Positions 3,001-57,897 of a stretch of DNA of 64,000 nucleotides are shown here, in pieces. The DNA lies in the NCBI GenBank assembly GCA_002269645.1, contig NIVC01000252.1, positions 1 to 64,000 of the forward strand. The letters are read 5' to 3'. Under the pieces are notes generated by a model. The model did no database searches, was not told the DNA's origin, and saw only the letters and a program-made list of their open reading frames with translations. The DNA comes from Macrostomum lignano (taxonomy: Eukaryota). Both the position numbers and the translations under genes were made by a program. The first letter of the stretch is position 1; the number at the start of each line of letters is the position of its first letter.

Positions 3001-6000
3001 AACAAATTGATGGGCAAACGGATGACACACTGCACAGAGACTTGTTGGGACATATTAAAAACAGCTTATTTTAGAATGGGTACACTTTACTAAAGTAGAA
3101 TGCTCCTACAGAAAGCTGCAAGCAAACTAGCATCTTCTGGAGCTGACATGCAGAGAAGAATGATTTTGTCGTCCTTGAAATCACTAAATAGATATGCGAA
3201 ATCGATCTTTTGCTAATCCCACCACAGGTTCCAGTGAAAAGAAGAAACGAAACCCATTGACTAAATTGGCAGTCGACTCAATCGATGCCGACTGCAACGG
3301 ACCTGTCAGCTTCGAACTCAGGAGAGCAGCTAATAGTCTACGAGAGTAATGCTAGATGCCAGAATGCTTCACAGCATCAAAGTCTTAAGCAGAAGCTTCA
3401 ATGAAAGGTTAGTTCATGCTGTGGCTGCATTCGTTTTCGTGTCTAGAAGCGTTATAACTTTTTGTACTTTTAACTCTCAGATCGGGTCTTAGCAGATTCT
3501 ATAGCTATGCATGCAAGGGCCCCTCAGAGGAGATGCTTAAACACTGCAGTGCATTTTTCCTAGCAATTATTGGGACACGAAGTGTTGGGCCACTGTGTGT
3601 GTGTCTAGTTTTTTCCGCATTTGTTAAGTCACCTAAAGAACTCAATTAATAAAGGGCTCCAGAACAAATTGATGGGCAAACGGATGACACACTGCACAGA
3701 GACTTGTTGGGACATATTAAAAACAGCTTATTTTAGAATGGGTACACTTTACTAAAGTAGAATGCTCCTACAGAAAGCTGCAAGCAAACTAGCATCTTCT
3801 GGAGCTGACATGCAGAGAAGAATGATTTTGTCGTCCTTGAAATCACTAAATAGATATGCGAAATCGATCTTTTGCTAATCCCACCACAGGTTCCAGTGAA
3901 AAGAAGAAACGAAACCCATTGACTAAATTGGCAGTCGACTCAATCGATGCCGACTGCAACGGACCTGTCAGCTTCGAACTCAGGAGAGCAGCTAATAGTC
4001 TACGAGAGTAATGCTAGATGCCAGAATGCTTCACAGCATCAAAGTCTTAAGCAGAAGCTTCAATGAAAGGTTAGTTCATGCTGTGGCTGCATTCGTTTTC
4101 GTGTCTAGAAGCGTTATAACTTTTTGTACTTTTAACTCTCAGATCGGGTCTTAGCAGATTCTATAGCTATGCATGCAAGGGCCCCTCAGAGGAGATGCTT
4201 AAACACTGCAGTGCATTTTTCCTAGCAATTATTGGGACACGAAGTGTTGGGCCACTGTGTGTGTGTCTAGTTTTTTCCGCATTTGTTAAGTCACCTAAAG
4301 AACTCAATTAATAAAGGGCTCCAGAACAAATTGATGGGCAAACGGATGACACACTGCACAGAGACTTGTTGGGACATATTAAAAACAGCTTATTTTAGAA
4401 TGGGTACACTTTACTAAAGTAGAATGCTCCTACAGAAAGCTGCAAGCAAACTAGCATCTTCTGGAGCTGACATGCAGAGAAGAATGATTTTGTCGTCCTT
4501 GAAATCACTAAATAGATATGCGAAATCGATCTTTTGCTAATCCCACCACAGGTTCCAGTGAAAAGAAGAAACGAAACCCATTGACTAAATTGGCAGTCGA
4601 CTCAATCGATGCCGACTGCAACGGACCTGTCAGCTTCGAACTCAGGAGAGCAGCTAATAGTCTACGAGAGTAATGCTAGATGCCAGAATGCTTCACAGCA
4701 TCAAAGTCTTAAGCAGAAGCTTCAATGAAAGGTTAGTTCATGCTGTGGCTGCATTCGTTTTCGTGTCTAGAAGCGTTATAACTTTTTGTACTTTTAACTC
4801 TCAGATCGGGTCTTAGCAGATTCTATAGCTATGCATGCAAGGGCCCCTCAGAGGAGATGCTTAAACACTGCAGTGCATTTTTCCTAGCAATTATTGGGAC
4901 ACGAAGTGTTGGGCCACTGTGTGTGTGTGTCTAGTTTTTTCCGCATTTGTTAAGTCACCTAAAGAACTCAATTAATAAAGGGCTCCAGAACAAATTGATG
5001 GGCAAACGGATGACACACTGCACAGAGACTTGTTGGGACATATTAAAAACAGCTTATTTTAGAATGGGTACACTTTACTAAAGTAGAATGCTCCTACAGA
5101 AAGCTGCAAGCAAACTAGCATCTTCTGGAGCTGACATGCAGAGAAGAATGATTTTGTCGTCCTTGAAATCACTAAATAGATATGCGAAATCGATCTTTTG
5201 CTAATCCCACCACAGGTTCCAGTGAAAAGAAGAAACGAAACCCATTGACTAAATTGGCAGTCGACTCAATCGATGCCGACTGCAACGGACCTGTCAGCTT
5301 CGAACTCAGGAGAGCAGCTAATAGTCTACGAGAGTAATGCTAGATGCCAGAATGCTTCACAGCATCAAAGTCTTAAGCAGAAGCTTCAATGAAAGGTTAG
5401 TTCATGCTGTGGCTGCATTCGTTTTCGTGTCTAGAAGCGTTATAACTTTTTGTACTTTTAACTCTCAGATCGGGTCTTAGCAGATTCTATAGCTATGCAT
5501 GCAAGGGCCCCTCAGAGGAGATGCTTAAACACTGCAGTGCATTTTTCCTAGCAATTATTGGGACACGAAGTGTTGGGCCACTGTGTGTGTGTGTCTAGTT
5601 TTTTCCGCATTTGTTAAGTCACCTAAAGAACTCAATTAATAAAGGGCTCCAGAACAAATTGATGGGCAAAGGATGACACACTGCACAGAGACTTGTTGGG
5701 ACATATTAAAAACAGCTTATTTTAGAATGGGTACACTTTACTAAAGTAGAATGCTCCTACAGAAAGCTGCAAGCAAACTAGCATCTTCTGGAGCTGACAT
5801 GCAGAGAAGAATGATTTTGTCGTCCTTGAAATCACTAAATAGATATGCGAAATCGATCTTTTGCTAATCCCACACAGGTTCCAGTGAAAAGAAGAAACGA
5901 AACCCATTGACTAAATTGGCAGTCGACTCAATCGATGCCGACTGCAACGGACCTGTCAGCTTCGAACTCAGGAGAGCAGCTAATAGTCTACGAGAGTAAT

Positions 6001-9000
6001 GCTAGATGCCAGAATGCTTCACAGCATCAAAGTCTTTAAAGCAGAAGCTTCAATGAAAGGTTAGTTCATGCTGTGGCTGCATTCGTTTTCGTGTCTAGAA
6101 GCGTTATAACTTTTTGTACTTTTAACTCTCAGATCGGGTCTTAGCAGATTCTATAGCTATGCATGCAAGGGCCCCTCAGAGGAGATGCTTAAACACTGCA
6201 GTGCATTTTTCCTAGCAATTATTGGGACACGAAGTGTTGGGCCACTGTGTGTGTGTGTCTAGTTTTTTCCGCATTTGTTAAGTCACCTAAAGAACTCAAT
6301 TAATAAAGGGCTCCAGAACAAATTGATGGGCAAACGGATGACACACTGCACAGAGACTTGTTGGGACATATTAAAAACAGCTTATTTTAGAATGGGTACA
6401 CTTTACTAAAGTAGAATGCTCCTACAGAAAGCTGCAAGCAAACTAGCATCTTCTGGAGCTGACATGCAGAGAAGAATGATTTTGTCGTCCTTGAAATCAC
6501 TAAATAGATATGCGAAATCGATCTTTTGCTAATCCCACCACAGGTTCCAGTGAAAAGAAGAAACGAAACCCATTGACTAAATTGGCAGTCGACTCAATCG
6601 ATGCCGACTGCAACGACCTGTCAGCTTCGAACTCAGGAGAGCAGCTAATAGTCTACGAGAGTAATGCTAGATGCCAGAATGCTTCACAGCATCAAAGTCT
6701 TAAAGCAGAAGCTTCAATGAAAGGTTAGTTCATGCTGTGGCTGCATTCGTTTTCGTGTCTAGAAGCGTTATAACTTTTTGTACTTTTAACTCTCAGATCG
6801 GGTCTTAGCAGATTCTATAGCTATGCATGCAAGGGCCCCTCAGAGGAGATGCTTAAACACTGCAGTGCATTTTTCCTAGCAATTATTGGGACACGAAGTG
6901 TTGGGCCACTGTGTGTGTGTGTCTAGTTTTTTCCGCATTTGTTAAGTCACCTAAAGAACTCAATTAATAAAGGGCTCCAGAACAAATTGATGGGCAAACG
7001 GATGACACACTGCACAGAGACTTGTTGGGACATATTAAAAACAGCTTATTTTAGAATGGGTACACTTTACTAAAGTAGAATGCTCCTACAGAAAGCTGCA
7101 AGCAAACTAGCATCTTCTGGAGCTGACATGCAGAGAAGAATGATTTTGTCGTCCTTGAAATCACTAAATAGATATGCGAAATCGATCTTTTGCTAATCCC
7201 ACCACAGGTTCCAGTGAAAAGAAGAAACGAAACCCATTGACTAAATTGGCAGTCGACTCAATCGATGCCGACTGCAACGGACCTGTCAGCTTCGAACTCA
7301 GGAGAGCAGCTAATAGTCTACGAGAGTAATGCTAGATGCCAGAATGCTTCACAGCATCAAAGTCTTAAGCAGAAGCTTCAATGAAAGGTTAGTTCATGCT
7401 GTGGCTGCATTCGTTTTCGTGTCTAGAAGCGTTATAACTTTTTGTACTTTTAACTCTCAGATCGGGTCTTAGCAGATTCTATAGCTATGCATGCAAGGGC
7501 CCCTCAGAGGAGATGCTTAAACACTGCAGTGCATTTTTCCTAGCAATTATTGGGACACGAAGTGTTGGGCCACTGTGTGTGTGTGTCTAGTTTTTTCCGC
7601 ATTTGTTAAGTCACCTAAAGAACTCAATTAATAAAGGGCTCCAAACAAATTGATGGGCAAACGGATGACACACTGCACAGAGACTTGTTGGGACATATTA
7701 AAAACAGCTTATTTTAGAATGGGTACACTTTACTAAAGTAGAATGCTCCTACAGAAAGCTGCAAGCAAACTAGCATCTTCTGGAGCTGACATGCAGAGAA
7801 GAATGATTTTGTCGTCCTTGAAATCACTAAATAGATATGCGAAATCGATCTTTTGCTAATCCCACCACAGGTTCCAGTGAAAAGAAGAAACGAAACCCAT
7901 TGACTAAATTGGCAGTCGACTCAATCGATGCCGACTGCAACGGACCTGTCAGCTTCGAACTCAGGAGAGCAGCTAATAGTCTACGAGAGTAATGCTAGAT
8001 GCCAGAATGCTTCACAGCATCAAAGTCTTTAAGCAGAAGCTTCAATGAAAGGTTAGTTCATGCTGTGGCTGCATTCGTTTTCGTGTCTAGAAGCGTTATA
8101 ACTTTTTGTACTTTTAACTCTCAGATCGGGTCTTAGCAGATTCTATAGCTATGCATGCAAGGGCCCCTCAGAGGAGATGCTTAAACACTGCAGTGCATTT
8201 TTCCTAGCAATTATTGGGACACGAAGTGTTGGGCCACTGTGTGTGTGTGTCTAGTTTTTTCCGCATTTGTTAAGTCACCTAAAGAACTCAATTAATAAAG
8301 GGCTCCAGAACAAATTGATGGGCAAACGGATGACACACTGCACAGAGACTTGTTGGGACATATTAAAAACAGCTTATTTTAGAATGGGTACACTTTACTA
8401 AAGTAGAATGCTCCTACAGAAAGCTGCAAGCAAACTAGCATCTTCTGGAGCTGACATGCAGAGAAGAATGATTTTGTCGTCCTTGAAATCACTAAATAGA
8501 TATGCGAAATCGATCTTTTGCTAATCCCACCACAGGTTCCAGTGAAAAGAAGAAACGAAACCCATTGACTAAATTGGCAGTCGACTCAATCGATGCCGAC
8601 TGCAACGGACCTGTCAGCTTCGAACTCAGGAGAGCAGCTAATAGTCTACGAGAGTAATGCTAGATGCCAGAATGCTTCACAGCATCAAAGTCTTAAGCAG
8701 AAGCTTCAATGAAAGGTTAGTTCATGCTGTGGCTGCATTCGTTTTCGTGTCTAGAAGCGTTATAACTTTTTGTACTTTTAACTCTCAGATCGGGTCTTAG
8801 CAGATTCTATAGCTATGCTTGCAAGGGCCCCTCAGAGGAGATGCTTAAACACTGCAGTGCATTTTTCCTAGCAATTATTGGGACACGAAGTGTTGGGCCA
8901 CTGTGTGTGTGTGTCTAGTTTTTTCCGCATTTGTTAAGTCACCTAAAGAACTCAATTAATAAAGGGCTCCAGAACAAATTGATGGGCAAACGGATGACAC

Positions 9001-11333
9001 ACTGCACAGAGACTTGTTGGGACATATTAAAAACAGCTTATTTTAGAATGGGTACACTTTACTAAAGTAGAATGCTCCTACAGAAAGCTGCAAGCAAACT
9101 AGCATCTTCTGGAGCAGACATGCAGAGAAGAATGATTTTGTCGTCCTTGAAATCACTAAATAGATATGCGAAATCGATCTTTTGCTAATCCCACCACAGG
9201 TTCCAGTGAAAAGAAGAAACGAAACCCATTGACTAAATTGGCAGTCGACTCAATCGATGCCGACTGCAACGGACCTGTCAGCTTCGAACTCAGGAGAGCA
9301 GCTAATAGTCTACGAGAGTAATGCTAGATGCCAGAATGCTTCACAGCATCAAAGTCTTTAAAGCAGAAGCTTCAATGAAAGGTTAGTTCATGCTGTGGCT
9401 GCATTCGTTTTCGTGTCTAGAAGCGTTATAACTTTTTGTACTTTTAACTCTCAGATCGGGTCTTAGCAGATTCTATAGCTATGCATGCAAGGGCCCCTCA
9501 GAGGAGATGCTTAAACACTGCAGTGCATTTTTCCTAGCAATTATTGGGACACGAAGTGTTGGGCCACTGTGTGTGTGTGTCTAGTTTTTTCCGCATTTGT
9601 TAAGTCACCTAAAGAACTCAATTAATAAAGGGCTACAGAACAAATTGATGGGCAAACGGATGACACACTGCACAGAGACTTGTTGGGACATATTAAAAAC
9701 AGCTTATTTTAGAATGGGTACACTTTACTAAAGTAGAATGCTCCTACAGAAAGCTGCAAGCAAACTAGCATCTTCTGGAGCTGACATGCAGAGAAGAATG
9801 ATTTTGTCGTCCTTGAAATCACTAAATAGATATGCGAAATCGATCTTTTGCTAATCCCACCACAGGTTCCAGTGAAAAGAAGAAACGAAACCCATTGACT
9901 AAATTGGCAGTCGACTCAATCGATGCCGACTGCAACGGACCTGTCAGCTTCGAACTCAGGAGAGCAGCTAATAGTCTACGAGAGTAATGCTAGATGCCAG
10001 AATGCTTCACAGCATCAAAGTCTTTAAAGCAGAAGCTTCAATGAAAGGTTAGTTCATGCTGTGGCTGCATTCGTTTTCGTGTCTAGAAGCGTTATAACTT
10101 TTTGTACTTTTAACTCTCAGATCGGGTCTTAGCAGATTCTATAGCTATGCATGCAAGGGCCCCTCAGAGGAGATGCTTAAACACTGCAGTGCATTTTTCC
10201 TAGCAATTATTGGGACACGAAGTGTTGGGCCACTGTGTGTGTGTGTCTAGTTTTTTCCGCATTTGTTAAGTCACCTAAAGAACTCAATTAATAAAGGGCT
10301 CCAGAACAAATTGATGGGCAAACGGATGACACACTGCACAGAGACTTGTTGGGACATATTAAAAACAGCTTTTTTTAGAATAGGTATACTTTACTAAAGT
10401 AGAATGCTCCTACAGAAAGCTGCAAGCAAACTAGCATCTTCTGGAGCAGACATGCAGAGAAGAATGATTTTGTCGTCCTTGAAATCACTAAATAGATATG
10501 CGAAATCGATCTTTTGCTAATCCCACCACAGGTTCCAGTGAAAAGAAGAAACGAAACCCATTGACTAAATTGGCAGTCGACTCAATCGATGCCGACTGCA
10601 ACGGACCTGTCAGCTTCGAACTCAGGAGAGCAGCTAATAGTCTACGAGAGTAATGCTAGATGCCAGAATGCTTCACAGCATCAAAGTCTTTAAAGCAGAA
10701 GCTTCAATGAAAGGTTAGTTCATGCTGTGGCTGCATTCGTTTTCGTGTCTAGAAGCGTTATAACTTTTTGTACTTTTAACTCTCAGATCGTGTCTTAGCA
10801 GATTCTATAGCTATGCATGCAAGGGCCCCTCAGAGGAGATGCTTAAACACTGCAGTGCATTTTTCCTAGCAATTATTGGGACACGAAGTGTTGGGCCACT
10901 GTGTGTGTGTGTCTAGTTTTTTCCGCATTTGTTAAGTCACCTAAAGAACTCAATTAATAAAGGGCTCCAAAACAAATTGATGGGCAAACGGATGACACAC
11001 TGCACAGAGACTTGTTGGGACATATAAAAAACAGCTTTTTTTAGAATAGGTATACTTTACTAAAGTAGAATGCTCCTACAGAAAGCTGCAAGCAAACTAG
11101 CATCTTCTGGAGCAGACATGCAGAGAAGAATGATTTTGTCGTCCTTGAAATCACTAAATAGATATGCGAAATCGATCTTTTGCTAATCCCACCACAGGTT
11201 CCAGTGAAAAGAAGAAACGAAACCCATTGACTAAATTGGCAGTCGACTCAATCGATGCCGACTGCAACGGACCTGTCAGCTTCGAACTCAGGAGAGCAGC
11301 TAATAGTCTACGAGAGTAATGCTAGATGCCAGA
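1..11333. repeat. Satellite array, ~664-bp unit, 17 complete copies plus a ~50-bp partial copy; runs off the left edge of the window
   Basis: The motif gaactcaggagagcagc recurs at 1, 663, 1327, 1989, 2650, 3314, 3976, 4638, 5302, 5964, 6629, 7294, 7957, 8622, 9286, 9952, 10618 and 11284 (spacing 661-666). Units are near-identical, differing mainly in an internal (TG)n and a few indels. The array ends at ...gatgccaga (11333). Confidence 0.98.
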
Positions 11334-18612: not shown

Positions 18613-19129
18613 AGGATAGATAATGAGAAGTAGAGGGAGAGAAACAAAGAAGTAAATTCAGAGGCAGCGGGACTGGCACTCTTTGCCAGAAAAGCTCAAA
18701 GTCCATCTAGCAGGCAGCCATCAGTATGCATCAAAAATGTCTGCCGTAATGATCCCGGGATTAACTGTCAGAATGATTTATTGCCACCAAAATCTTCAAT
18801 CCGAATGGGAGGCAGATTCGTGATAAATTTATGATGCAGTGCCGCATCATCGGCCTCGCGGAGGATCTGACAGCTGCTTCATCAGATCTCGTCACTTGAG
18901 CTGGTCTGCACCAGGCGGCAAGTGCCTTTTTGCCGTTTTCAGCTTTGGAAAATTAATGAAAATTCAAAATCCGTGGCCTAACTGCTTTTAGTAGCATAGT
19001 TTTAAAGTTGAGCAGTTTAGGAATCGGGGATGCTCCCCTGTGCTCTGAAATTTTAGATGTACTTTAATATACACAGAGTTCAAACATAAATATCCATGGA
19101 GATCAAAAATAAATATCCATATGGATATC

Positions 19130-38980: not shown

Positions 38981-41582
38981 TGTGACATAGTGACACGATG
39001 AACTTTGCTATAGGTTGCATGCACTGTAGTGTTGACTCACTAGCAGTGGAGTTGTTATTGATCGGCTTAGAGATTGTATTTTATTCCACCCCACCCCATG
39101 CGCGCGTTTGAATCTGTCTGCACCCACCACCTCAGTGCTAAATAAACAGCCTAGCTCTCAAGCGAGCACCTTTTACTCACTCCTGCAATTCCACACTTCT
39201 GCCTCGCTAACAAAGTTATCACAATGGCGACGAGTCTGCCCACGCTGGGCCAACTGCTACCATCTACAAACATCGAGATCTTCCTAGAGCGTCTCGAGCA
39301 GTACTTCATCTGCAAGGAGGTGAAGGATGAGGCAAAAGTGGCAACTCTGATCACGTCGATTGGAGAGGAGGCTTACATCACACTGCGGAGTCTGTGCCAG
39401 CCGGTCCAAGTGGCGCAGAAGTCTTACGCTGACCTGAAGAAGCTGCTGACAACGCACTTCGCACCCAAGCCTTCGGAGCTAGCTGCGAGGTTCCGTTTCC
39501 AACAACGAACTCAGCAAGCAGGCGAGAGCTTCACGGCATTCATCGCGGGGCTCCAGGCTCTGTCAGCTGACTGCAACTTCGGTGAGTCGCTAAATGAGCG
39601 GCTCCGAGACCAACTCGTGTTCGGCCTTCGAAGCGACGCCTATCGAGCCAAGCTGCTGGAAGTCGTTGAGCCGACTTTCGAATCCCTGCAAACAAAGGCT
39701 ATGTCGCTGGAGTCTGCAGAGCGTTCGTCCCTGGAGATGTCACAAAGGGCATCGGAGTCTGTTGCCAATCTGCAATTTGTCAGCAAGAGAGGTAGCCGCA
39801 AGCAGGTGACACCTTCAGCGCACCACAGAGGGCATCGGGTCAGCGGCAGCGACAACGGCGGCAGCGGCAACGGCGGCAGCGGCAACGGCAGCGGCAACGG
39901 CAGCGGCAACGGTGGCGGTGGCAGCTCATGCAAAAGCTGTGGCGGTTCCCACGAGCGTCATTCATGCAAGTTCAGGGACGCCAAGTGCCATGCATGCGGC
40001 AAGGTCGGCCATATCCGCAAGGTCTGCCAGTCCACCAAGCAGGCCAAGCTACACATGTTACAAGAGGAGCGGATGGCACCTACTGTCGAAGGCGCGTGTG
40101 ACACCCAGGTGCCCATCTTCGCAGTCCGACCAACAGGCAGAAACGCTGGACCGACAGTCATGCTGCTCGTCAACGGCCAGGAATGCCAGTTTGTCATCGA
40201 CACCGGCTCTGCAGTCACGCTGATGCCGCAGCAGCTGCAGCAAAAGTTACTCCCTCAGCTACAACTGGCTCACCTTCGGCTGGACTGGCCGACAATAATG
40301 GCCCAGGTGCACGCAGTGTCCACCGATTACGACATCAGCGACCTGCATGAGCGATTCGCTGCGGTGTTCGAGAACCGACTTGGCAAATTTCGACACAATC
40401 AAGGCTCCGCCCCGGTACAGCCATGGCCATTTCCGACTGAGCCATGGGAGCGGTTGCACATCGACTACGCGGGACCTGTGGACGGCCGCACTTACCTGGT
40501 CCTGGTCGACGCGCACAGCAAGTGGCCAGAGGTGCACATAATGAGCAGCACCGCTGCAACTGCGACGATCAGCTGTCTGCGAGAAATCTTCGCTCGTCTC
40601 GGCCTACCGAGAACCTTGGTGTCGGACAACGGGCCTCAATTCGCTTCGGCCGAGTTCGCTGAGTTCGTCAGTTCCAACGGCATCCGGCACATCTTCTCGG
40701 CGCCATTCCACCCGGCGACCAACGGCCAGGCCGAGCGCTTCGTCCAGGTGCTGAAGCGGCATCTGAGTAAGTGCGGTCACTCCGACGCGCAACTTCAACG
40801 ACTGCTGATGGCCTATCGCAACACTCCGCACAGCGTCAGTGGCACCGCGCCGAGTCAGCTGCTCATTGGCCGCCGGCTGCGCAGCCGGCTGGACCTCCTG
40901 ACACCATCGTTGACTTCGGCCATGCAACAGCGACAGCAGCATCAGCTTCAGCAGCAGCGGCCAGCGCGCCAGTTCCAGCCTGGAGATCGTGTGCTCTACC
41001 GCGATTTCAGCACTGCTGCTCGTTCAGGAGAAAGCAGTCGCTGGGCCGAAGGTGTCATCGTCAATGCCGGCAATCGCAACTGCACAGTCGATTCCGGGCG
41101 CGGCGTACAAGCGCGACACGCTGACCAGCTGCTAGCGGCTTCTGCTGGGCTGGCCGAGTCGAACAGCAGCACAACCCCGGCCGAGGACTGCTCGGCACCT
41201 GACGTTGGCGGCACGTCTACCTCGCCGCAGGCAGACACGGCTGACTCTGCTAACGAGGCACCCCGGCGCTACCCAGATCGAGTTCGAGCACCACCTGACA
41301 GATTGATGCTGCAGTGAGGGTGTTAACTTAGGGGGGAGATGTGACATAGTGACACGATGAACTTTGCAATAGGTTGCATGCACTGTAGTGTTGACTCACT
41401 AGCAGTGGAGTTGTTATTGATCGGCTTAGAGATTGTATTTTATTCCACCCCACCCAATGCGCGCGTTTGAATCTGTCTGCACCCACCACCTCAGTGCTAA
41501 ATAAATAGCCTAGCTCTCAAGCGAGCACCTTTTACTCACTCCTGCAATTCCACACTTCTGCCTCGCTAACAAAGTTATCACA
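38981..41582 (+). mobile_element. Ty3/gypsy (Mag-like) LTR element 2, internally deleted and non-autonomous, 2.6 kb
   Basis: 243-bp LTRs at 38981-39223 and 41340-41582 with 3 substitutions by eye. 5-bp TSD gtatt. PBS TGGCGACGAG (39225-39234) matches the tRNA-Ser(GCT) 3' end. PPT aggggggaga at 41330-41339. Confidence 0.97.
39224..41317 (+). CDS. Element 2 single ORF: Gag with two zinc knuckles, truncated protease and integrase core; no RT or RNase H
   Basis: FLERLEQYF...RFRFQQRTQ...LRDQLVFGL, then CKSCGGSH...CHACGKVGHIRKVC and IDTGSA. This runs directly into PWERLHIDYAGP...VSDNGPQF...TNGQAERFV. Confidence 0.93.
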   Translation: MATSLPTLGQLLPSTNIEIFLERLEQYFICKEVKDEAKVATLITSIGEEAYITLRSLCQPVQVAQKSYADLKKLLTTHFAPKPSELAARFRFQQRTQQAGESFTAFIAGLQALSADCNFGESLNERLRDQLVFGLRSDAYRAKLLEVVEPTFESLQTKAMSLESAERSSLEMSQRASESVANLQFVSKRGSRKQVTPSAHHRGHRVSGSDNGGSGNGGSGNGSGNGSGNGGGGSSCKSCGGSHERHSCKFRDAKCHACGKVGHIRKVCQSTKQAKLHMLQEERMAPTVEGACDTQVPIFAVRPTGRNAGPTVMLLVNGQECQFVIDTGSAVTLMPQQLQQKLLPQLQLAHLRLDWPTIMAQVHAVSTDYDISDLHERFAAVFENRLGKFRHNQGSAPVQPWPFPTEPWERLHIDYAGPVDGRTYLVLVDAHSKWPEVHIMSSTAATATISCLREIFARLGLPRTLVSDNGPQFASAEFAEFVSSNGIRHIFSAPFHPATNGQAERFVQVLKRHLSKCGHSDAQLQRLLMAYRNTPHSVSGTAPSQLLIGRRLRSRLDLLTPSLTSAMQQRQQHQLQQQRPARQFQPGDRVLYRDFSTAARSGESSRWAEGVIVNAGNRNCTVDSGRGVQARHADQLLAASAGLAESNSSTTPAEDCSAPDVGGTSTSPQADTADSANEAPRRYPDRVRAPPDRLMLQ

Positions 41583-47456: not shown

Positions 47457-48957
47457 GTAAGTATTTTTGTAGTGTGGGTGCAACAAAGCAAGGTTTTTGT
47501 TTTTGTTTTTTTACAGAATATAGTTTTGTACTTATTTAATTTTTGCCTAGGCCTATTTAATTTTAGAACAGGAACTGAGTACCAAAAATTTGTGGCATTA
47601 AGGCCTAAAATTAACAATAGGCCTATTATTAGGCAGTCTGCAATAGTGACAATACTATTTGTTTCCATCTCTATATAGGCCTAGCATTATTTTTTATATC
47701 TAGCTTTAATTAGGCCCTATTATATGGGCTCCCTTTGCTAATTTCTATCTATAGCTTTGCCTTGGCTAGGCCTATCAACTTCTCATTCTCAATGATGATT
47801 CTATTCTAGCTATAAGCTATGGACCATAGTTTGTATCATGTAGGCTATTAGTGTACATTAGGTTTTATGCTAAATATTATAAGACATTGTTTGTATGCTA
47901 GGTTTATATGCCAGTGCCAATACAAAAACAATTGTTATCCCTATTGGAATAAAAATTGACAACCTGCAGATGTGCACTTTAGAATAGAGTCAAATTATTT
48001 TACCGTGCTTTAGCATTATTAGAGATGTTCCATTGCAATTGACGAAATCGTCCATTTCAATCTGTTGAAATCAAAATTCGAAAACTTTCCAAAATTGAAA
48101 TTGAACTTGAAATTTTCCGAAATCAAAATTCAGAAAAACAAAGTTTAATATGACTAACACTTACTTTTTTTACATTTTGATTTACTGCTTATGTTGTGTC
48201 ACTACACGTGATCAAACAGCTCCTTAAGATTGTTCTGCAGCGAATGAGCCTGGAGATGGTGTCAGCCCACTGACCGGACTGACTCCGCTACTGAGCGTGG
48301 GATTGCGTCGAGGTAAGGCAGTCAGTCCGTCCCTAGAGCGTACGGTACCCACTTTGCTCGAGACCCAAATGATTAATGAACACAGACATGAGTCTTACTT
48401 TGATTTCTAATTGGCATGGCGGTGAGCAAGGCAGCGAGTTCATCAATTAGTAGTATTGAGATTTTGATATTGAAGTTTGTTGATTCTGCAGAGTCTAGTG
48501 TTAGGTGTCGATGGGCACACGCTCACCCTGCCCACCGCCAGCAATTCTCTATTTATTTAGGCTGCCTGGCATAAGCCCTAGGGTCTCATGCCAGATAGCA
48601 TTATCAACAACCAACTTGTTGGCCAATCACCAATTGACAAGGGACAAGGGAATTGACAAGTGCTAACAAAAAGGGGGAGAGAGGGACCAGGCCAGCCAAT
48701 CCAGCTGGGTACGCATAATAAGAGAAGGGGGCAGAGAATAAGGGCTGATACATAACTGGGGGGGGGGTTTAGTGCAGTCAGAAATGGGGGGCTGACGCAA
48801 ACAGAATAGGATGGGGGCGCAGGCACGCGGCTGGGGGGTGGGAGTGCAGAGCCGGGCACACTTTGACCAAGAGCCAGAGATTGCTCATCGGTGCAAGTGC
48901 AACCGGGCACAACACCCTCCCCCACCACAAAAAGAGAGTTCATACTATAGACTAAAG

Positions 48958-49827
48958 TTAAAGTGCATAAAAGTCTTGCACTCTCAACATCAGTTGGGCC
49001 GGCAGGGTCTTTGCCATGCTCCGCTGCCAGCCAAGTCGCCACTTTTGGTTTTCCCGGGTTTCCCGCAAATGGTGCCAATGATGCCAGCAGGAGCCACTCC
49101 GAGGGCAGGACAGCGATGCGTCGCGCATGCCAGCAGCTGTGTACCAGCCGAGCGGTGACCTCAAACTTGAGGCCCTGTAATGTAGGTACAACCACAGAAT
49201 GTCTCCAGGCCAGTCCGATGACTCAGTGATCAGAATGCGACCTTTCATGAAGCCATTGTCACCGAGAAGTTGCATGAACTCGTCCCAGACCGACACACCC
49301 TGCTCGCCTGAAACCCGGCGCCGTTCCCACAGTCGCACCAACAGAGGCAGTTCTCACTCCCTGGCCAGTTGCACTTGCAACACAACCACTGCTTTTCGTT
49401 GCTCCCAGTCCAGTGCCGCATTCCGCCCATCCAACTCGGCTTCCCCAACCGCGATCACCCGCGGCCACCCACCAGCCAGGAACCGTCAGAGATCGGCTTC
49501 TATCGCAGGTAGGAGTGGCGCGGCCGCTGCTCTTAGGCCAAGTGCAAAAAAGATTCGGGCGTCCCCGATGAGTTGGGCAGTTGCAGCATTTGACGGACAC
49601 TGGCAGTATGGTGAATTCACTATAGCAACGCAGGCTTCTGGGATGCGATCTTTTCCACGTGTAGCAGGTCATGACGATCCGACATTGCAATTGCCAGCTG
49701 ATTCGGCACAGGGTCTCCAGAGTAACTCTGCCACTAACCAATGCGTACAATAACCAGCTATTTGTATTATTTCCCCATACGGTACCCAGCAGTTACGAGC
49801 GCACTTGAGAACTCTCACATAGCACAT
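48958..49827 (-). pseudogene. TatD-family (TIM-barrel) nuclease-like extra ORF inside element 3; three in-frame TGA codons and at least one frameshift
   Basis: From ATG 49827: ...RIFFALGLRAAAA...PRVIAVGEAELD...EQRKAVVVLQVQLARE*ELPLLVRL..., then after a frameshift GLKFEVT...IAVLPSEWLLLASLAPF. The motifs follow TatD order and spacing (GIHP, VAIGEIGLD, Q...QL.LA.E..LP..IH, IP.DRLLLETDAPY). About 290 codons. Confidence 0.7.
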
Positions 49828-49907
49828 ATTTCCGACAATTTTTATTCATTTTTATTGTTTTTATTTGACTCAACGCCCTGACTGGGCTGCTCAGGTGCCC
49901 AGCTCAG

Positions 49908-52077
49908 TCAGTACAATATTGGGCTACCGAACCGTTGAGGCGGGACACCCCTATTAGCATGAGCTGGGCACCCTTGGTGTACCGGAGGAGGTTCAGCCTG
50001 ACCTTCTGGGTGGGTCACTCTTTGAGCCCAAATGGCATCCAGTTCGTAATCATCATACGCAGCAGCCTGCTCAAGATCGGGCATCGTCGGCAACGGGGGA
50101 TAAGGTGGTTCCTAGCGGGAGTGTCGCTTGGGGTCCCTGACCCTACCCTCTGCACGACGTTTTTCCCGAGCCAGTGGGCGCCATTGCTTGGAGTTTGCGT
50201 CAACTTTCCTCAAGTTATTGTAATGTACGACTCTTGGCCTACAAGCCCCTTCATGCATAATTTTGAAATTTACATCGGAAAATCAGAAAGACTCGCGCTG
50301 GACCTTTCCAGTAATGGTGGAATTTCGGTATTTCGTTTGGTTTTATCACCAGATCATACTCTAAAACCAGGTCTCCCTCTCGAATTTCAACGCCGCGAGC
50401 TCGACCGTCGTAGAACTCATTCTGTTTCCGCTGGTAGGTTCTGAGGTTCTCCCTCACTGCCTCATGCGCCTGCTGAAGATTGTCAGCTAAGCGATAGGTG
50501 AACTCTGGGTAACTCTCAGGTATCCGCTCACTTAAGAAATCTATATCAACAGGGAGCGGCATCTCTCGGGCAAACATGGCGTAATGCGGTGTGTATCCAG
50601 TGCCTCTGTACACACCGGAGCGGTACGCTAGCAGCCCTGGGGCAATGCAGTCTTCCCAGTCCTTATCCTCTTGCTCTAACTGGCACATCAGCATGTGCTT
50701 CAGCGTGCGATTGAAACTCTCTGCCTGGCCGTCGGCCATCAGATGATATGGTGTTGTTCGGCATTTGCGGATGTCTAACAGCGTGCATCCCTATAGGAAA
50801 AAGTTGTAAAACCGCGGACGGTGTCCGGCGCACTTTTGAAATTTTTCTAAAGTGCAGCGCGCGCACAGGCGCATTGCCTGCGCGCGCGCTGCCCTTTCTT
50901 ACTGGCTGCTGCTCTAGCAAATACATATACATGTAAATGGGTATAATACCTCTATTGAAGGGGCTTATACACTCGTAATTTATTAAGCTTAGAGATGCTC
51001 CGAAAATTCAATTTCAATTTTCCAAAATTTGAAATTTTTTAGAGCAAATTTCATTTTCGAAAAAAATTAAAAAAGTGAAAATTTTGGTAGTGTCTAAAAA
51101 GTCGCTAAAAAAAATACTTTCTACTACATATACATGTATTACTTTTTGCTTAAGCAGTAAATTGAAAATAGAAAAGTAAGTGTTGATCATACTAAACTTT
51201 GTTTTTCTAAATTATGATTTTAGGAAATTTCAATTTTGATTTTGGAAAGTTAGCGAATTTTGATTTCGACAAAACTGCAGATCTTTCGGAATATCTCTAA
51301 TAATCCTAAAGCGCGGTAAAATAGTTTGACTCTTTTCTAAAGCGCGCATCCGCGGGTTTTTAACATTTATTCCAATAGGGGCGTGCATAGACTCTTCATC
51401 AGGGCTGATTCAAAATTTGATCCCTGGTCCGTGACAATCTCCCGAGGGCAGCCAAACGATGAAATCCAGTGCGTGAAGATCGCATGGGCCACTGCCTTTG
51501 CCCTCTGGTTGACCAACGGGACAGCGCAGGGCCACTTGCTGAATGAATCTTGAATAGTTAACACAAATCTTGACCCCTTCTTCGACTTAGGTAGCGGTCT
51601 GACTATGTTGCACATAATCCTCTGACATGGCGCGGAGCTTGGGATCGGTTGGAGAGGTGCTCTGTTTCTTTGCCCTGGTTTGCACTTTGAGCACACGAGG
51701 CATGTCCGGCAGAACTCTTCAACTTTGCAAGACAGTCCCGGCCACCAAAACTGCTGTTTGAATTTCGCTTGGGTTTTCTTAATTCCTAGGCCTAGGTGAC
51801 AGCCGCTTGCACCATCATGTAAGATTTTGGCGACTTCCTCGAAAAGACAGCCAGGCAAGACTATTTTTTTTCGCGAGGTGCCTAGAACTCGAATTAGGAA
51901 GAGTTCATCGTCCACTTCTATCTGATTTCGGTGGGCCCAGATTTCTCTCATGGTTGGACTGATGATTGGGTCAATCTGCGTGTCCTTGCCATCCAAAAAC
52001 TGCCTGATTCGTACCAGGGCTGGATCTTGTCTTTGAGCCTCCTTGAGATGATCTTTGTTTAACGGCAAAGCCAGCAT
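49908..52077 (-). pseudogene. Element 3 integrase, interrupted by MITE B and frameshifted at the C-terminus
   Basis: LHDGASGCHLG...CLVCSKC, TDQGSNFES, then after the MITE DGQAESFNRTLK...WKGP and VVHYNNLRK. Confidence 0.92.
50789..51380 (-). mobile_element. MITE copy B (592 bp), same family as copy A, inserted in the element 3 integrase
   Basis: Termini CCCTATAGGAAAA...TTATTCCAATAGGG. 8-bp TSD gcgtgcat (50781-50788 and 51381-51388). AT-rich interior. Confidence 0.93.
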
Positions 52078-52165
52078 TACGTTTACCTGTTCTTTAACTA
52101 GGGGTGGACTGCTGCACGTTGGGCATGAGTCTTGAGCCCAATGTTGTCAAACTTTCTGCGAAAGG

Positions 52166-53839
52166 CTATCCGCATTCTGATAGAAAATTCCCTTCCTGTG
52201 CGAGATCTAAGTCGTAACGCTGCAGCGTCTCAAGCCATTTAGCACATTGCCCCTCGACGTCCTTAAGATTTGTCAACCATGAGAGAGTGCTATGGTCTGT
52301 TCGTATCTTAAATTTCCTTCCCAGCAAATAGTACTTGTACAGCTTTACGAAGTGAACTATCGCTAGGAGTTCTAGTCTGGTAGTACAGTAGTTTCTTTTA
52401 CAATCTGCCAGCGACATGGATCCATAGGCAATGACGCGCTCTGACCTATCAGGTTGGCATTGTGATAAAACTGCACCAATCCCAATCTTTGAGCTGGTGT
52501 CGGTGTCCAGCACAAATGGTCCAGCTCCCTCGGAAAAGTCTGGATAGGCCATGATCTCCGCTGATGTTAGCGATTGTTTGAGTTCGGAAAACGCCTGCTG
52601 TTGTTCTGGGCCCCAAATAAACTGTGAGTCCTTGCGCATGAGCTTGAACAATGCGGCTGCCTTCACTGAGAAGTCATTCACGAAATTTCTGTAGTAGGAG
52701 CAGAGGCCTAAAAATAACTACACTTCTTTTATATTCTTGGGTGTGGGCCAGTTTCGAATTTCTTCTGTCTTCGCAGGATCTGTCGCAATACCTTCAGACG
52801 ATATGACATGCCCTAAGAACTTGGCTTCCTTGGACAAGAAATGGCATTTCTTGGCTTTCAAGCGGATCCCAGCAGTTCGTAAGCAATCAAAAACATGCTG
52901 CAGCCACTTGAAATGCTCTTCGTAAGACTTTGAAAAAACTATTATATTGTCGAAATATACAAGACACTCTCTCCATGTTAGACCAGCCATGACGAGGTTC
53001 ATCAGCTTGACGAAAGTCGCCGGGGCATTTCTTAGCCCAAAACTCACATATCGCCAGGCAAACTGACCTCTATTTGGAACTACGAATGCCGTCTTAAGTT
53101 GATCTTTAGGGTCTAGCGGGCACTGGTGATAGCCTGAAGCCAAGTCTAGAGTTGAAAAAATAGCATTTCCTGCAAGTGCCTCTAAAGTTTCATCCATTCG
53201 CGGCGGCAGAAATGGGTCAGGATTGGTTACTTCATTTAGTTGGCAATAATCCAGGCACAGCCTGATGGATCCGTCCTTCTTCCGCACAGGTACAACCGGG
53301 CTGACCCACGGGGATTGACACTCGTAGATCCTACCGCAGTCTATTAGCCTGTCGATTTCTTTATCGATTTCTGGCCTTATGTGCGGCGGGATACGGCGTG
53401 GTGGTTCTCTAGTTGGCCTGGCGTCCCCGATGTCTATGGTATGCATTGCCTGGTCAGTTGAACCCAGCTCGCTATCATCCTTGGCGAAGACATCTCTGTT
53501 CTGACGGATCAACTTTATGAACGACACCTGCTGGTCTTCGGACAAGTCCAGCAAGTCCCAGCTGCCCAGATGCTCTACAGGATCCCAGTCTTTGTCGAGC
53601 GAGACCTGGTTAGCTTGTGCCTTGGGTGCTTCATCATGATTTGGTTGGCTGCCATGGATGGGCGAGAACCAGCCAATCTGCTTCCCTTTTGTCAGTACTA
53701 CAGGTTCTCCCGACACATTCGTAATCTTGACAGGGACGGTACTGTCAGCAGAGGGCACGACAATTGACCTAGCTAGCATCACATGGCCTTCAGTCTGGGA
53801 GCGGGTCTCTGCTATTCCTAAGAACCGAAATTCCTTCAC
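52166..53839 (-). pseudogene. Element 3 RT and RNase H with stops and damaged catalytic motifs
   Basis: SPVVPVRKKDGSIRLCLDY, LDLASGYHQ, YFDN in place of YxDD, LDTDTS in place of DTDAS, RLELLAIV. Confidence 0.93.
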
Positions 53840-53860
53840 TCCTCTCCGACTCAGCTTAGC

Positions 53861-55322
53861 TCAAATGGTTTGAGACCGATTTGCAGGAACTGTTTCCGAT
53901 TTCGAAATGACTATCCGGCAGAGAAGGGGTCGCTCAGAAGACATACAAAAAGGAAAAGTTCCTACTAAAGTGAAGATCTGAAAGTTGGCAAAATCCAACT
54001 TGGCTGCTTGGCAACGGAAAAAATCTGCACCAAGGATGCAGTGATGCAGTATGTGTGAGACGACGATGAAGGTGTAACAAAATCTATGCAAGCCAATCGA
54101 AAATTCCCCAACGCACTCACCCAGCACATTTATGACATCGCCATTTGCAACTTGAATATTCTCCTATGTAGCTTGGCTTCAACACGGCTCAATTCGAGTT
54201 CCTCTTCCACGCGGCTACACTTAGCAGGGAGATACTTGAGCCGGAATCTAGCAAGCATGCCATACTTCTTGTTCTGCCTTCAAATATCACATCGACAAAA
54301 CCAAGTTCTGAACCTTATGCGGGTTGGCTCGGTGCGCTGGGTTGGGCCTCTACTGCTGGTTCGGGTGGGTGCCTGGGCAGCCCTGCCTCCAGGTCCCCTG
54401 ACCGTTTCCCGTTTGCTGCTGGTCTCTGCAGTTTAAAACACCTGGCCCGTTTGTGACCAGGCCGGTTGCAGTAATTGCAAACTATAGGATTTTTGCATTG
54501 CTGGGTCGTGTGGGTGGTCTCAAGGCAAGAACCACACTGGAAAGTTCTCTGGGCTGGTGCTGCAGCCTGGGCAGGTTGGGGATTAGGGTGCTTATGATAG
54601 TGGACTCCAGTTCCCGATCCAGCCTTCAGGTCTTGCAGCTCCGCTCTCAGTTCTTTTAGCTTTTTGCGGAGTCTGACTGCCTCATCTTGCGTGTTACTTG
54701 CGGATACATTCGCTGAGGGCCAAGGTTTCTCAGTGCTCGATTGAGCTATGCGGAGGGATGCCATACTCTGCCTTACATGCCTACAAGCTGCGTCGAGGGT
54801 ACCCGGTTCCTCCAATAGCAAGTGTTCACTGATTCTATCAGCGATTCTGGCACCTAGCAGGAACCGATCTCTTGCTAACTCATCTCTCTGTTCCACTGGC
54901 AGGTTTGGATAGGCCCGGCAGACAATTACTCGAAGGGCGTCGGCATAGTCTTCCACAGATTCATCCTTCTTCTGGTCCCAACCCCTCAGTTCGATATTAC
55001 TGTCCTGTGGAGTGTGATGCTGATTAAACCGTTGTGAAAGGCGTTCAACAAAATCGTCAAGCTCTAGATTGTCTGGTAACTCAAGGTTGGCAATGGCTCG
55101 GTAAGCTGTGTTGAAGTCCATCATACTAAGTAGGTGCTGCTTCCTATCTTCCTCGGGGATTTCTGCAGCTTCACAGTACGCTGTAAACTGTTGGAACCAC
55201 AGTTGGAAGTCCTGTCCAAGGGCAAACTTTGATGGTCTGGGCACTCTGTCCGATATTCATTTGGTTCTGCACTCTGGCGGCGAGTGCGTCAATTAGGGCA
55301 TTGACATTAGCCATTATGGCAG
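53861..55322 (-). pseudogene. Element 3 Gag (two zinc knuckles) and protease
   Basis: PSKFALGQDFQLWFQQF...ARDRFLLG, CGSCLETTH...CNYCNRPGHKRARC, CLLDSGSS (~54230-54260) and ILGADF. The N-terminus MANVNALIDAL is frameshifted near 55250. Confidence 0.9.
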
Positions 55323-57897
55323 CGACGAGGAGAAGCAAGATCGGAAGATTCAACTACGAGTAGTCTAGGCAGAAAATCAGACTAAATATCAAGTGCACTT
55401 GAAACTGCTAGATCATAAAAGTACAACCCAGGTTCTCTACTAGTAAACTAAACCTTAAACTATCCTGGTCACAACACCAATGTTGTGTCACTACACGTGA
55501 TCAAACAGCTCCTTAAGATTGTTCTGCAGCGAATGAGCCTGGAGATGGTGTCAGCCCACTGACCGGACTGACTCCGCTACTGAGCGTGGGATTGCGTCGA
55601 GGTAAGGCAGTCAGTCCGTCCCTAGAGCGTACGGTACCCACTTTGCTCGAGACCCAAATGATTAATGAACATAGACGTGAGTCTTACTTTGATTTCCAAT
55701 CGGCATGGCGGTGAGCAAGGCAGCAAGTTCGTCAATTAGTAGTATTGAGATTTCGATATTGAAGTTTGTTGATTCTGCAGAGTCTAGTGTTAGGTGTCGA
55801 TGGGCACACGCTCACCCTGCCCACTGCCAGCAATTCTCTATTTATTTAGGCTGCCTGGCGTAAGCCCTAGGGTCTCACGCCAGATAGCATTATCAACAAC
55901 CAACTTGTTGGCCAATCACCAATTGACAAGGGACAAGGGAATTGACAAGTGCTAACAAAAAGGGGGAGAGAGGGACCAGGCCAGCCAATCCGGCTGGGTA
56001 CGCATAATAAGAGAAGGGGGCAGAGAATAAGGGCTGATACACAACTGGGGGGGGGTTTAGCGCAGTCAGAAATGGGGGGGTTGACGCAAACAGAATGGGG
56101 GGGGGGCGCAGGCACGCGGCTGGGGGTGGGAGTGCAGAGCCAGGCACACTTTGACCAAGAGCCAGAGATTGCTCATCGGTGCAAGTGCACCCAGGCACAA
56201 CACTTATGCAAAGCAAAATACATGTATATCTAGCAGAAATTACTCACTGTTTATTTTTAGCCACTTAGACACTTTTAAAATTTTGACTTCTGATTTTTTT
56301 GAAATCGAAATTTGCTCTTAAAAATGTCAAATTTTGGAAAATTGAAATTGAAATTTCTGAACACTGCTAGGTATTATAAATGACAAGTGTATAGGCTCCT
56401 TCTTCAGAGGTATTAGGCCCCTTTCCATGTATATTTATTTGCTTAAGCAGCAGCCAGCAAGGAAGGGCACTGCGTGCACCTGTGCGCGCACTGTGCTTTA
56501 GAAAAATTTCAAAAGTGCACCAAAAGCCGTCCGCAGTTTTACAACTTTTTCCTATAGGGATTGTTATTGATGCAATATATCTACCATGCTCAGGATTTAG
56601 GAAGGTGGCAGAGGCATGCCAGAATCAATGATGAGCAAAGCTACCAATTCATGCCATATATGCCAATACTTTTAGTCAACTGTTTGCCAAGCTCACCAAA
56701 ATTTTAATGACCCTTTTTACCATGTATGTCAAATATACTAGGCCTAATGTTTTCAGCCCTACTTTGCTGACTACCCCCATACCCAAGTAGTGTCCTGAAA
56801 TTTCGCATCACACTATTTACATTATGGAAAACCTTGCTTGCTTGAAGAAAATATCCCAACAATAGTATACTAGAAAAAAGCAAATAAGTTTACAATTGTC
56901 TCCCATAAGGCTTTAGCTCACTCTGACACCTATCTACAACTTTGCTAGTGCTGTACTTTGTGGCACGGCCTTGAAAGTTGACTAAAATGATCCTGATGCT
57001 GGTGGATGCCATGGCCACGGTCATGATTGCCTATGTAATAGAGCTTGGCAGCTCTCAGCAGCCTTTCGCAGCTTGGGGTTCCAACTGGCAGCAGTATCTA
57101 GGAAAGCTTCAACCACAGTTCAAGTGTCTGGTTGCTCTGGCCACCAGCCTTCTACTGTAACCACATTGTGGCATAGAAGGACTCCATGATGGCCTCTGAA
57201 AAAAGCATTGCCCTACTTATTACCAAGGACAACTTAAGTAGTAGGACGCAACACTCGCGTATCGTGTAATTTTTATTGGAGGCCTGGTCTTCACATATAT
57301 GTAATTCTCGACTAGTTGCACGTAGAAAGCTAATTCTTTTGGCGTTAGGTCCAGAATTTTGTTCTTCGTTAAAATGTAAGTAATGAAATAGTAGACTACA
57401 TGTATAAGCAGCGTATAGTTAAGTACAGTGAAAACAACCCAATTTCGTGCAATTTTGTGTAAAATACACCAAATTTTCTTTAGAAATTTGTCAGTCTGTC
57501 ACAATTCCTAGTCAATACTCAATAGCGAAAATGAGTTTTTAGTTTGTAAACTAATAATCTCATTAAGCAAGTGTAAAATAAAACAGTTTATTTATTATAG
57601 AAAATATCATTGTCAAATGCCATTGGTTTATTTTTTACGAGTATCAAAAAAGTTAATAAATTTGTGGCCTGCGTTAGAGTGAGACAAAACAGAAAACAAA
57701 CTTGACAAAGAATCTGTGACAAAGCAGAAATTTACCCAAAGGACCAGGACCTGGATCTGGATCCTAACCTAGATTTGGCTTTTTTTCAACACTAAAACTG
57801 AGCAGCCCTAAGCAGCAAAACTGTTCCAAAAATTCACAGGTTTAGTCAAAATTTAAGTGATGGCTGATTCAAAAACAAACACAAACATCCGAGCCAA

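Follow-up and report, generated by a model that had tools for sequence, protein, structure and literature searches.

Results

A gypsy element and the remnant of its third gene

The window, by which we mean the whole stretch of 64,000 nucleotides analysed here (Macrostomum lignano, contig NIVC01000252.1, positions 1 to 64,000), carries on its minus strand a gypsy element that is complete in structure, with an LTR pair, a primer-binding site (PBS), gag, PR-RT-RH-IN and a polypurine tract (PPT). The element is assigned to Ty3/gypsy by its TG...CA LTRs, TSD, PBS and PPT, all of which are present, and by the gene order, in which gag is followed by PR-RT-RH-IN. Its features, in the direction of transcription, are as follows.

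56203..56206, minus strand: TSD of 4 bp, upstream copy
55481..56202, minus strand: 5′ LTR, TG...CA, approximately 722 nt, with an AATAAA-containing motif inside
55462..55479, minus strand: primer-binding site, also examined in sister copies
54315..55314, minus strand: gag, with weak PNMA and Retrotrans_gag matches, a zinc knuckle and a break near the gag start
49908..54163, minus strand: pol (protease, RT, RNase H, integrase), interrupted by stops, frameshifts and one insertion
50787..51380, no strand assigned: MITE-like repeat, the insertion within the integrase
49686..49907, minus strand: non-coding spacer between pol and ORF3, which includes the ATG at 49827
49639..49685, minus strand: J-domain remnant of approximately 15 codons, in a frame different from that of the TatD part and next to a deletion of approximately 950 nt
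48958..49638, minus strand: TatD-like domain remnant of ORF3, with two in-frame stops and two frame breaks
48915..48930, minus strand: polypurine tract
48192..48914, minus strand: 3′ LTR
48188..48191, minus strand: TSD of 4 bp, downstream copy

The protease was assigned by its position and by its similarity to the sister pol, and the PBS resembles what we take to be a tRNA-His-type PBS. The 5′ and 3′ LTRs are 96.8% identical, and the 5′ LTR contains a conserved donor-like GTAAG near 55687. The whole element is nested in a second copy of the MITE-like repeat (flanks 47939-48191 and 56203-56561). CpG is depleted across the stretch (observed/expected 0.76), as expected of a decayed copy.

According to a preliminary description of this DNA, the minus-strand frame from 49827 to 48958 conceals a TatD-like accessory gene. 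The frame is present as claimed, with 290 codons and three internal TGA codons, all of the TatD-like motifs quoted for it are found, and it is flanked by the integrase stop (49908) and the PPT of a full LTR element. The ATG at 49827 was rejected as the start of ORF3, because the homologous frame ends after 16-18 codons in all three sister copies checked. The first 63 or so codons of the frame are non-coding, and TatD homology begins only at 49638; the first TGA lies in the non-coding part, and only two lie within the TatD frame. The proposed 1-nt frameshift near 49190 is a genuine break, to which a second near 49015 must be added. Relative to a fuller sister copy, an out-of-frame deletion of approximately 950 nt at about 49638 took most of the J-domain and the entire helical domain, and with them the status of a J-domain protein. 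A second genomic copy (C3584) carries the same deletion. The window copy is a deleted and decayed third gene of a gypsy clade and cannot itself make a protein.

Other repeats occur in the window. A tandem array at 281-11328 consists of 17 near-identical copies of a unit of approximately 664 bp, and a long array of a 23-bp unit begins at 18951. Another LTR-type element lies at 39155-41317 on the plus strand; its single 720-codon frame contains gag, the start of a protease and an integrase, without RT.

Fuller copies of ORF3

Searches of the M. lignano genome by DNA yielded 20 candidates, all of which were matches, and searches by protein yielded 50 matches among 54 candidates. The TatD-bearing copies split into lineage W, that of the window, and lineages A, B and C. 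The less decayed copies that the preliminary description had hoped for are among them: the fuller copies encode approximately 560 aa, with a J-domain, an acidic linker, a helical domain and a TatD barrel. Pfam DnaJ matched the fuller ORF3 with E values of 1e-12 (B) and 8e-17 (A). The Pfam TatD family (PF01026) matched the fuller B copy with E 3e-8 and 33.8 bits against a cut-off of 27, whereas the window frame, with X at its stops, fell below the cut-off (E 0.007, 16.2 bits), as did subfamily C (24.6 bits).

Subfamily C is young: full LTR pairs are 99.2-99.9% alike in 14 of the 19 fetched copies. Its 571-codon ORF3 frame is unbroken in nine of these 19, and its pol frame in three. No indel within ORF3 is listed for the contigs that cover it in five public runs. 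One copy of lineage A, on C441 (L021:8668-9900 and L022), is surrounded by several long ORFs that by eye resemble the genes of a large DNA mobile element.

Lineages W, A and B are mosaic (window 49908-56202 compared with L023 and L034). Their RTs are close (dS 0.13-0.20), whereas synonymous sites are saturated in integrase and ORF3 and the LTR types differ, a combination that points to recombination between subfamilies.

Selection was measured as pairwise NG86 dN/dS on natural copies. Between A and B, dN/dS of ORF3 is 0.11 overall (0.08 in the J-domain, 0.06 in the helical domain and 0.13 in the TatD barrel), and between the TatD piece of the window and B it is 0.12; these low values between subfamilies are rough, because synonymous sites are near saturation. 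Codon identity between A and B is highest at second positions (approximately 0.82) and lowest at third positions (approximately 0.43). Families G and G2, which are introduced below, give 0.24. Within subfamily C, dN/dS of ORF3 is 0.27-0.32 (bootstrap upper bounds 0.47-0.56), compared with 0.14 for pol. Within the W lineage, the few available sites give 0.4-0.5, which is consistent with relaxed selection. ORF3 is thus under purifying selection, a point that the preliminary description proposed to test, and an accessory ORF does occupy the env position.

A J-domain and helical core shared among gypsy families

A search of the genome for the J-domain returned 127 matches among 150 scored, with approximately 20 each for families D and F. 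Forty loci were fetched, of which 25 proved to be of the element type and 15 to be ordinary host J-proteins. Public gene sets list ORF3s as host "J domain-containing proteins", and DnaJ counts are therefore inflated. Among 12 host genes compared as possible donors of the J-domain, a DNAJB1/4-like gene scored highest, with 71 bits against 66 for the next.

Families D, E, F, G and K encode a J-domain with an intact HPD motif, an acidic linker and the homologous helical domain, without TatD. Family K was found among the RT relatives (2 of 20). Pfam recognises the J-domain, with HPD, in A, B, D, E, F and G; that of K, with HPD, is recognised by the family profile. HPD is kept in all seven, and individual decayed copies vary. 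Subfamily C is without HPD, and its DnaJ match (E 0.003) does not qualify it as a J-domain protein. In family F (L256:7443-8429), the J-domain and the helical domain are joined by a linker that contains a chromodomain (PF00385, E 1e-12); this is a chromodomain outside the integrase in a gypsy element.

The helical domain is homologous across families by alignment and is predicted with pLDDT of approximately 90 in the family D model. It had no usable match in the Atlas, where the best value, 0.87, is below the level that counts, and Foldseek matched the J-domain only. The preliminary description had placed TatD at the core of the cargo. Since the J and helical parts are kept without TatD in five families, the conserved cargo is instead a J-protein with swappable modules, and this cargo is retained in families that share only 54-72% identity in RT.

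In an RT-RNase H tree of 23 rows, which covers elements of this genome alone and is rooted on one long outgroup, W, A, B, B2 and C form a clade with the ORF3-less family H (99/96); H is sister to C (100/100), and the branching of the J-only families at the base is not resolved. Family H, of which young copies exist, has no J or TatD match. Behind its pol lies a spacer of approximately 1.5 kb with a 141-codon sense frame (L289:2330-3865). The simplest reading of the tree would be that the J and helical parts came first, that TatD was gained once, and that ORF3 was later lost in H.

Four B-type copies (L034, L035, L087 and L324) have lost the J and helical parts together with the acceptor and keep the last 180 or so TatD codons. 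This deletion form has spread to several sites with long and open gag-pol frames, and in L087, the only one measured, the LTRs are 99.7% alike. The recurrence of such copies shows that ORF3 is dispensable in cis.

Beyond this genome, a profile search of 1.84 billion representatives returned two M. lignano gene models and one Logan protein, an unnamed protein of 166 aa that is 51% identical to C, followed by ordinary TatD proteins. A word search for ORF3 relatives returned one gene model only, and scans of viral contigs for such relatives returned nothing.

A TatD barrel with a replaced active site

The AlphaFold model of a natural intact ORF3 of subfamily C has a mean pLDDT of 56, with the barrel mostly at 60-85. 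All of the top 15 Foldseek matches of this model (E 8e-5 and up) are structures that belong to the TatD family or are TatD-like. On this model of modest confidence, the TIM-barrel amidohydrolase fold places ORF3 in the TatD family. Together with the Pfam match of the sister copy, this bears out the TatD resemblance first noticed in the window.

The active site was compared with that of YcfH and of an intact TatD group. The canonical metal-ligand set (HxH or (G/A)xN, followed by Glu, His, His and Asp) is absent from ORF3. Of the canonical active-site residues, about seven in number, the bridging Glu alone is invariant, intact copies included; it is present in W, A, B, C and the Logan relative. 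In all subfamilies other residues, in several cases Arg, stand in place of the second HxH His, the GxHP His, the two later His residues and the Asp of ETD. The first His of HxH is kept in A and B only, and C lacks both N-terminal His residues. Replacements that are common to all subfamilies must be ancestral, and the earlier suggestion that they are a family trait and not a product of decay is upheld. Judged by these residues, the ORF3 barrel is likely nuclease-dead.

Experiments on human enzymes bear on such losses (PMC10085689). In TATDN1, the bridging Glu was the sole residue whose loss cut both activities; a His-to-Ala change at either of two ligands, or a change of the Asp, had little effect. 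In TATDN3, the HxH-class enzyme tested, a change of the Asp cost 30-fold.

In a quick tree of 57 rows, the ORF3 barrel falls into a group with TATDN2-like proteins and with unnamed long proteins of the TatD family (SH-aLRT 90, with a warning of long branches); the tree omitted the only cluster-named TATDN2 sequence (P0065), a search match that was dropped by the motif filter. Human TATDN2 is reported to bind R-loops and to cleave the RNA in them (PMC10711561). The host TATDN1-like and TATDN3-like genes lie at separate loci and keep their motifs. No host TATDN2-like gene was found in the genome, where a TATDN2 query met only TATDN1-like exons and ORF3s; this absence is weak evidence, because the search was exon-wise.

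The unnamed long TatD proteins P0087, P0152, P0161, P0162 and P0058 have intact ligands and come from short contigs. Most have a Cys/His-rich N-terminal domain, and their profile is the nearest to the ORF3 barrel. A metagenome scan for this intact TATDN2-like group gave 80 loci at 24-35% identity with no pol match (0 of 80), and no pol-TatD fusion was present among 8000 candidates; the intact TATDN2-like proteins could therefore not be tied to retrotransposons.

Putative signals for the expression of ORF3

An AG dinucleotide stands immediately 5′ of the ATG in F, G and K (three of the six families with their own ATG) and 1, 7 and 17 nt before it in E, C and D, respectively. In A and B, ORF3 homology starts immediately 3′ of TTGCAG; an in-frame ATG is absent at this point from A and lies approximately 20 codons upstream in B. 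Every family examined has a GTRAG donor in the LTR, at approximately position 470-645. The last base of the donor exon is A in lineages W, A, B and B2, and splicing would therefore make an AUG in the J frame in lineages A and B. However, the donor exons of E and G likewise have a final A, for which these families have no need, and this weakens the point. One public gene model, possibly ab initio, joins the LTR donor to the acceptor of C. The window copy has not kept the acceptor. The acceptor also fits a published trans-splice motif (PMC8629364). No LTR-to-ORF3 joint was seen for two copies of subfamily C in eight contig sets from runs guessed to be RNA, a result that is uninformative either way, because contigs drop rare forms. 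Taken together, the signals suggest that ORF3 would be expressed from an env-style spliced subgenomic mRNA.

No canonical heat-shock element (at most one mismatch) occurs in six LTRs of the TatD clade, and the family D LTR has no Rfam match. The LTR of family D (L250:1502-1543; also L249, L251 and L313) contains 33 of the 35 nt of the published M. lignano spliced-leader (SL) exon and shares a further 9 nt upstream of this stretch with some SL gene copies. The stretch lies approximately 25-30 nt after a TATA-like box and approximately 45 nt before the donor, and family D transcripts would start with a self-encoded SL mimic that is devoid of the terminal AUG. True SL genes continue with ATG and a donor. 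The SL pattern has 84 genomic matches, compared with none for the reversed control. At L315 and L316, the SL exon is directly joined to coding-like genomic sequence, as in retrocopies of trans-spliced mRNA.

Discussion

There is very little doubt that ORF3 is a real and selected accessory gene of LTR elements. The best explanation overall, to which we give slightly less than an even chance, is that its product is an adaptor that recruits host Hsp70 and carries a probably nuclease-dead barrel. J-domains with an HPD motif hand clients to Hsp70, and J-domain and Hsp70 form a textbook pair. For the families that keep HPD, the sequences make a role as an Hsp70 adaptor probable. Subfamily C has no HPD, yet its ORF3 is selected, so that Hsp70 stimulation is not the whole function there.

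We propose that the LTR donor would be spliced to the acceptor at the ORF3 start, which would yield a subgenomic mRNA and, in A and B, create the AUG at the junction. The protein would act in trans, its J-domain would recruit host Hsp70, and the probably dead barrel is predicted to serve as a module that binds nucleic acid or a partner. More speculatively, Hsp70 would be brought to PIWI/piRNA or repressive chromatin complexes as a counter-defence. Swappable modules (a chromatin reader and a fold of nucleic-acid enzymes) and dispensability in cis fit a trans-acting counter-defence factor, and the chromodomain in the linker of family F points to chromatin. The client that ORF3 presents to Hsp70 may be the host silencing machinery, although we place this anti-silencing role somewhat below an even chance. 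Two reviews state that planarian DNAJA1 binds and stabilises PIWI (PMC11663942) and that the Arabidopsis J-protein SILENZIO represses transposons with HSP70 (PMC8616336). We are more doubtful of the fullest version of this proposal, in which a clade-encoded modular co-chaperone would turn host Hsp70 on PIWI or chromatin silencing complexes in the manner of T antigen, an activity undescribed for retrotransposons; its modules would be the J-domain, the novel helical domain and an exchangeable reader, either the pseudo-TatD barrel or the chromodomain.

Present evidence does not single out silencing over particle assembly as the process served, and a role in the particle is nearly as plausible. 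ORF3 may be a private chaperone that brings Hsp70 to the Gag-Pol or RNA-protein complex for folding, assembly or uncoating, with the TatD barrel holding RNA or an RNA:DNA intermediate. J-domains are common in viruses, the viral Foldseek matches are for the most part DnaJ proteins from phages and giant viruses, and the barrel groups loosely with TATDN2-like proteins, of which the human member acts on R-loop RNA. We nonetheless hold this particle role to be doubtful in its own right, as elements without ORF3 transpose (family H, I-type families and the deleted B copies), which complementation in trans could explain, and the chromodomain of family F suits chromatin better than a cytoplasmic particle. 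Unlikely, on the other hand, is a barrel that has been rewired instead of inactivated and acts as a weak metal-dependent nuclease, using the bridging Glu and substitute acidic residues to trim RNA or cDNA. The invariance of that Glu agrees with such an activity, as do further Glu residues conserved in strand 7, after strand 6 and two positions on from it, where the Logan relative has Gln, and the mild effect of single ligand changes in TATDN1. However, five canonical active-site residues are replaced together in ORF3, several by Arg, C lacks both N-terminal His residues, and in TATDN3 the change of the Asp alone was costly.

The loss or truncation of ORF3 in several lineages could be taken to mean that it is a captured host sequence and a functionless passenger. 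This is very improbable and has been largely refuted: each of the three domains has a dN/dS far below 1, identity peaks at codon position 2 and is lowest at position 3, the frame persists across families with divergent RTs, and in subfamily C the ORF3 frame is unbroken per kb as often as that of pol (9 of 19 over 1.7 kb, compared with 3 of 19 over 4 kb). Even less credible is an env-like entry protein. The env position and the env-style splice signals speak for it, but no 19-residue window in any of the seven proteins scanned exceeds a mean hydropathy of 1.5, so that no signal peptide-like or transmembrane segment and no strongly hydrophobic stretch places ORF3 among env glycoproteins, and the recognised domains are all of cytosolic or nuclear types.

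The adaptor reading is of interest beyond this genome. The two reviews already link Hsp70 and J-proteins to the stability of PIWI in the stem cells of flatworms and, in plants, to the repression of transposons (PMC11663942; PMC8616336). A transposon J-protein that is under selection in many young families of a tractable, regenerating flatworm makes the hijacking of a chaperone directly testable, and ORF3 also offers a natural TatD pseudo-enzyme and a helical domain unmatched in the libraries searched. To our knowledge, silencing-suppressor proteins from animal LTR retrotransposons have rarely been described.

A literature search of titles and abstracts found no published J-domain or TatD cargo in LTR retrotransposons, in agreement with the preliminary description, which knew of no TatD accessory gene in gypsy; Repbase, GyDB and an earlier classification of M. 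lignano LTR elements could mention one. DnaJ, TatD and ORF are absent from the main text of a 2025 study of M. lignano LTR elements, of which supplements 2-5 might contain them (PMC12801592), and a term search of an eLife survey of env-bearing elements found no mention of DnaJ, J domain or flatworm (PMC13524379). The J-domain/TatD ORF3 is thus apparently an undescribed accessory gene, in a setting where non-env, enzyme-derived ORF3s are already known.

With the TatD family (E. coli YcfH/YjjV/TatD, human TATDN1/3 and TATDN2), ORF3 shares full-length homology of the barrel, the fold and the order of motifs, and the nearest profile belongs to the TATDN2-like group, made up of unnamed long TatD proteins (hhalign 98.6%). 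ORF3 differs from this family in that the barrel is fused behind a J-domain, is borne by a retrotransposon and retains only the bridging Glu as an invariant residue. Viral J-proteins, including the DnaJ proteins of giant viruses and phages that Foldseek matched to the J-domain of ORF3, likewise combine a J-domain of a mobile element, HPD included, with an element-specific module. Polyomavirus T antigen and the Jiv captured by pestiviruses are viral J-domain proteins, and T antigen employs Hsp70 to dismantle a host repressor complex. ORF3, by comparison, sits in an LTR retrotransposon and has different partner domains. The env of errantiviruses such as Drosophila gypsy occupies the same position between the integrase and the PPT. 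It is made from a spliced message, in gypsy with a start codon that is created at the junction. Unlike env, ORF3 has neither a signal peptide-like or transmembrane segment nor homology to fusion proteins. The Juno and Vesta LTR retrotransposons of bdelloid rotifers carry an ORF3 that encodes a DEDDy exonuclease or a GDSL protein and that, like the ORF3 described here, is a non-env gene from an enzyme family and has been gained and lost among families; it forms a separate transcription unit, as the present ORF3 would. In that study, which contains no mention of DnaJ or TatD, these proteins have other folds, intact catalytic residues and no J-domain (PMC5408684).
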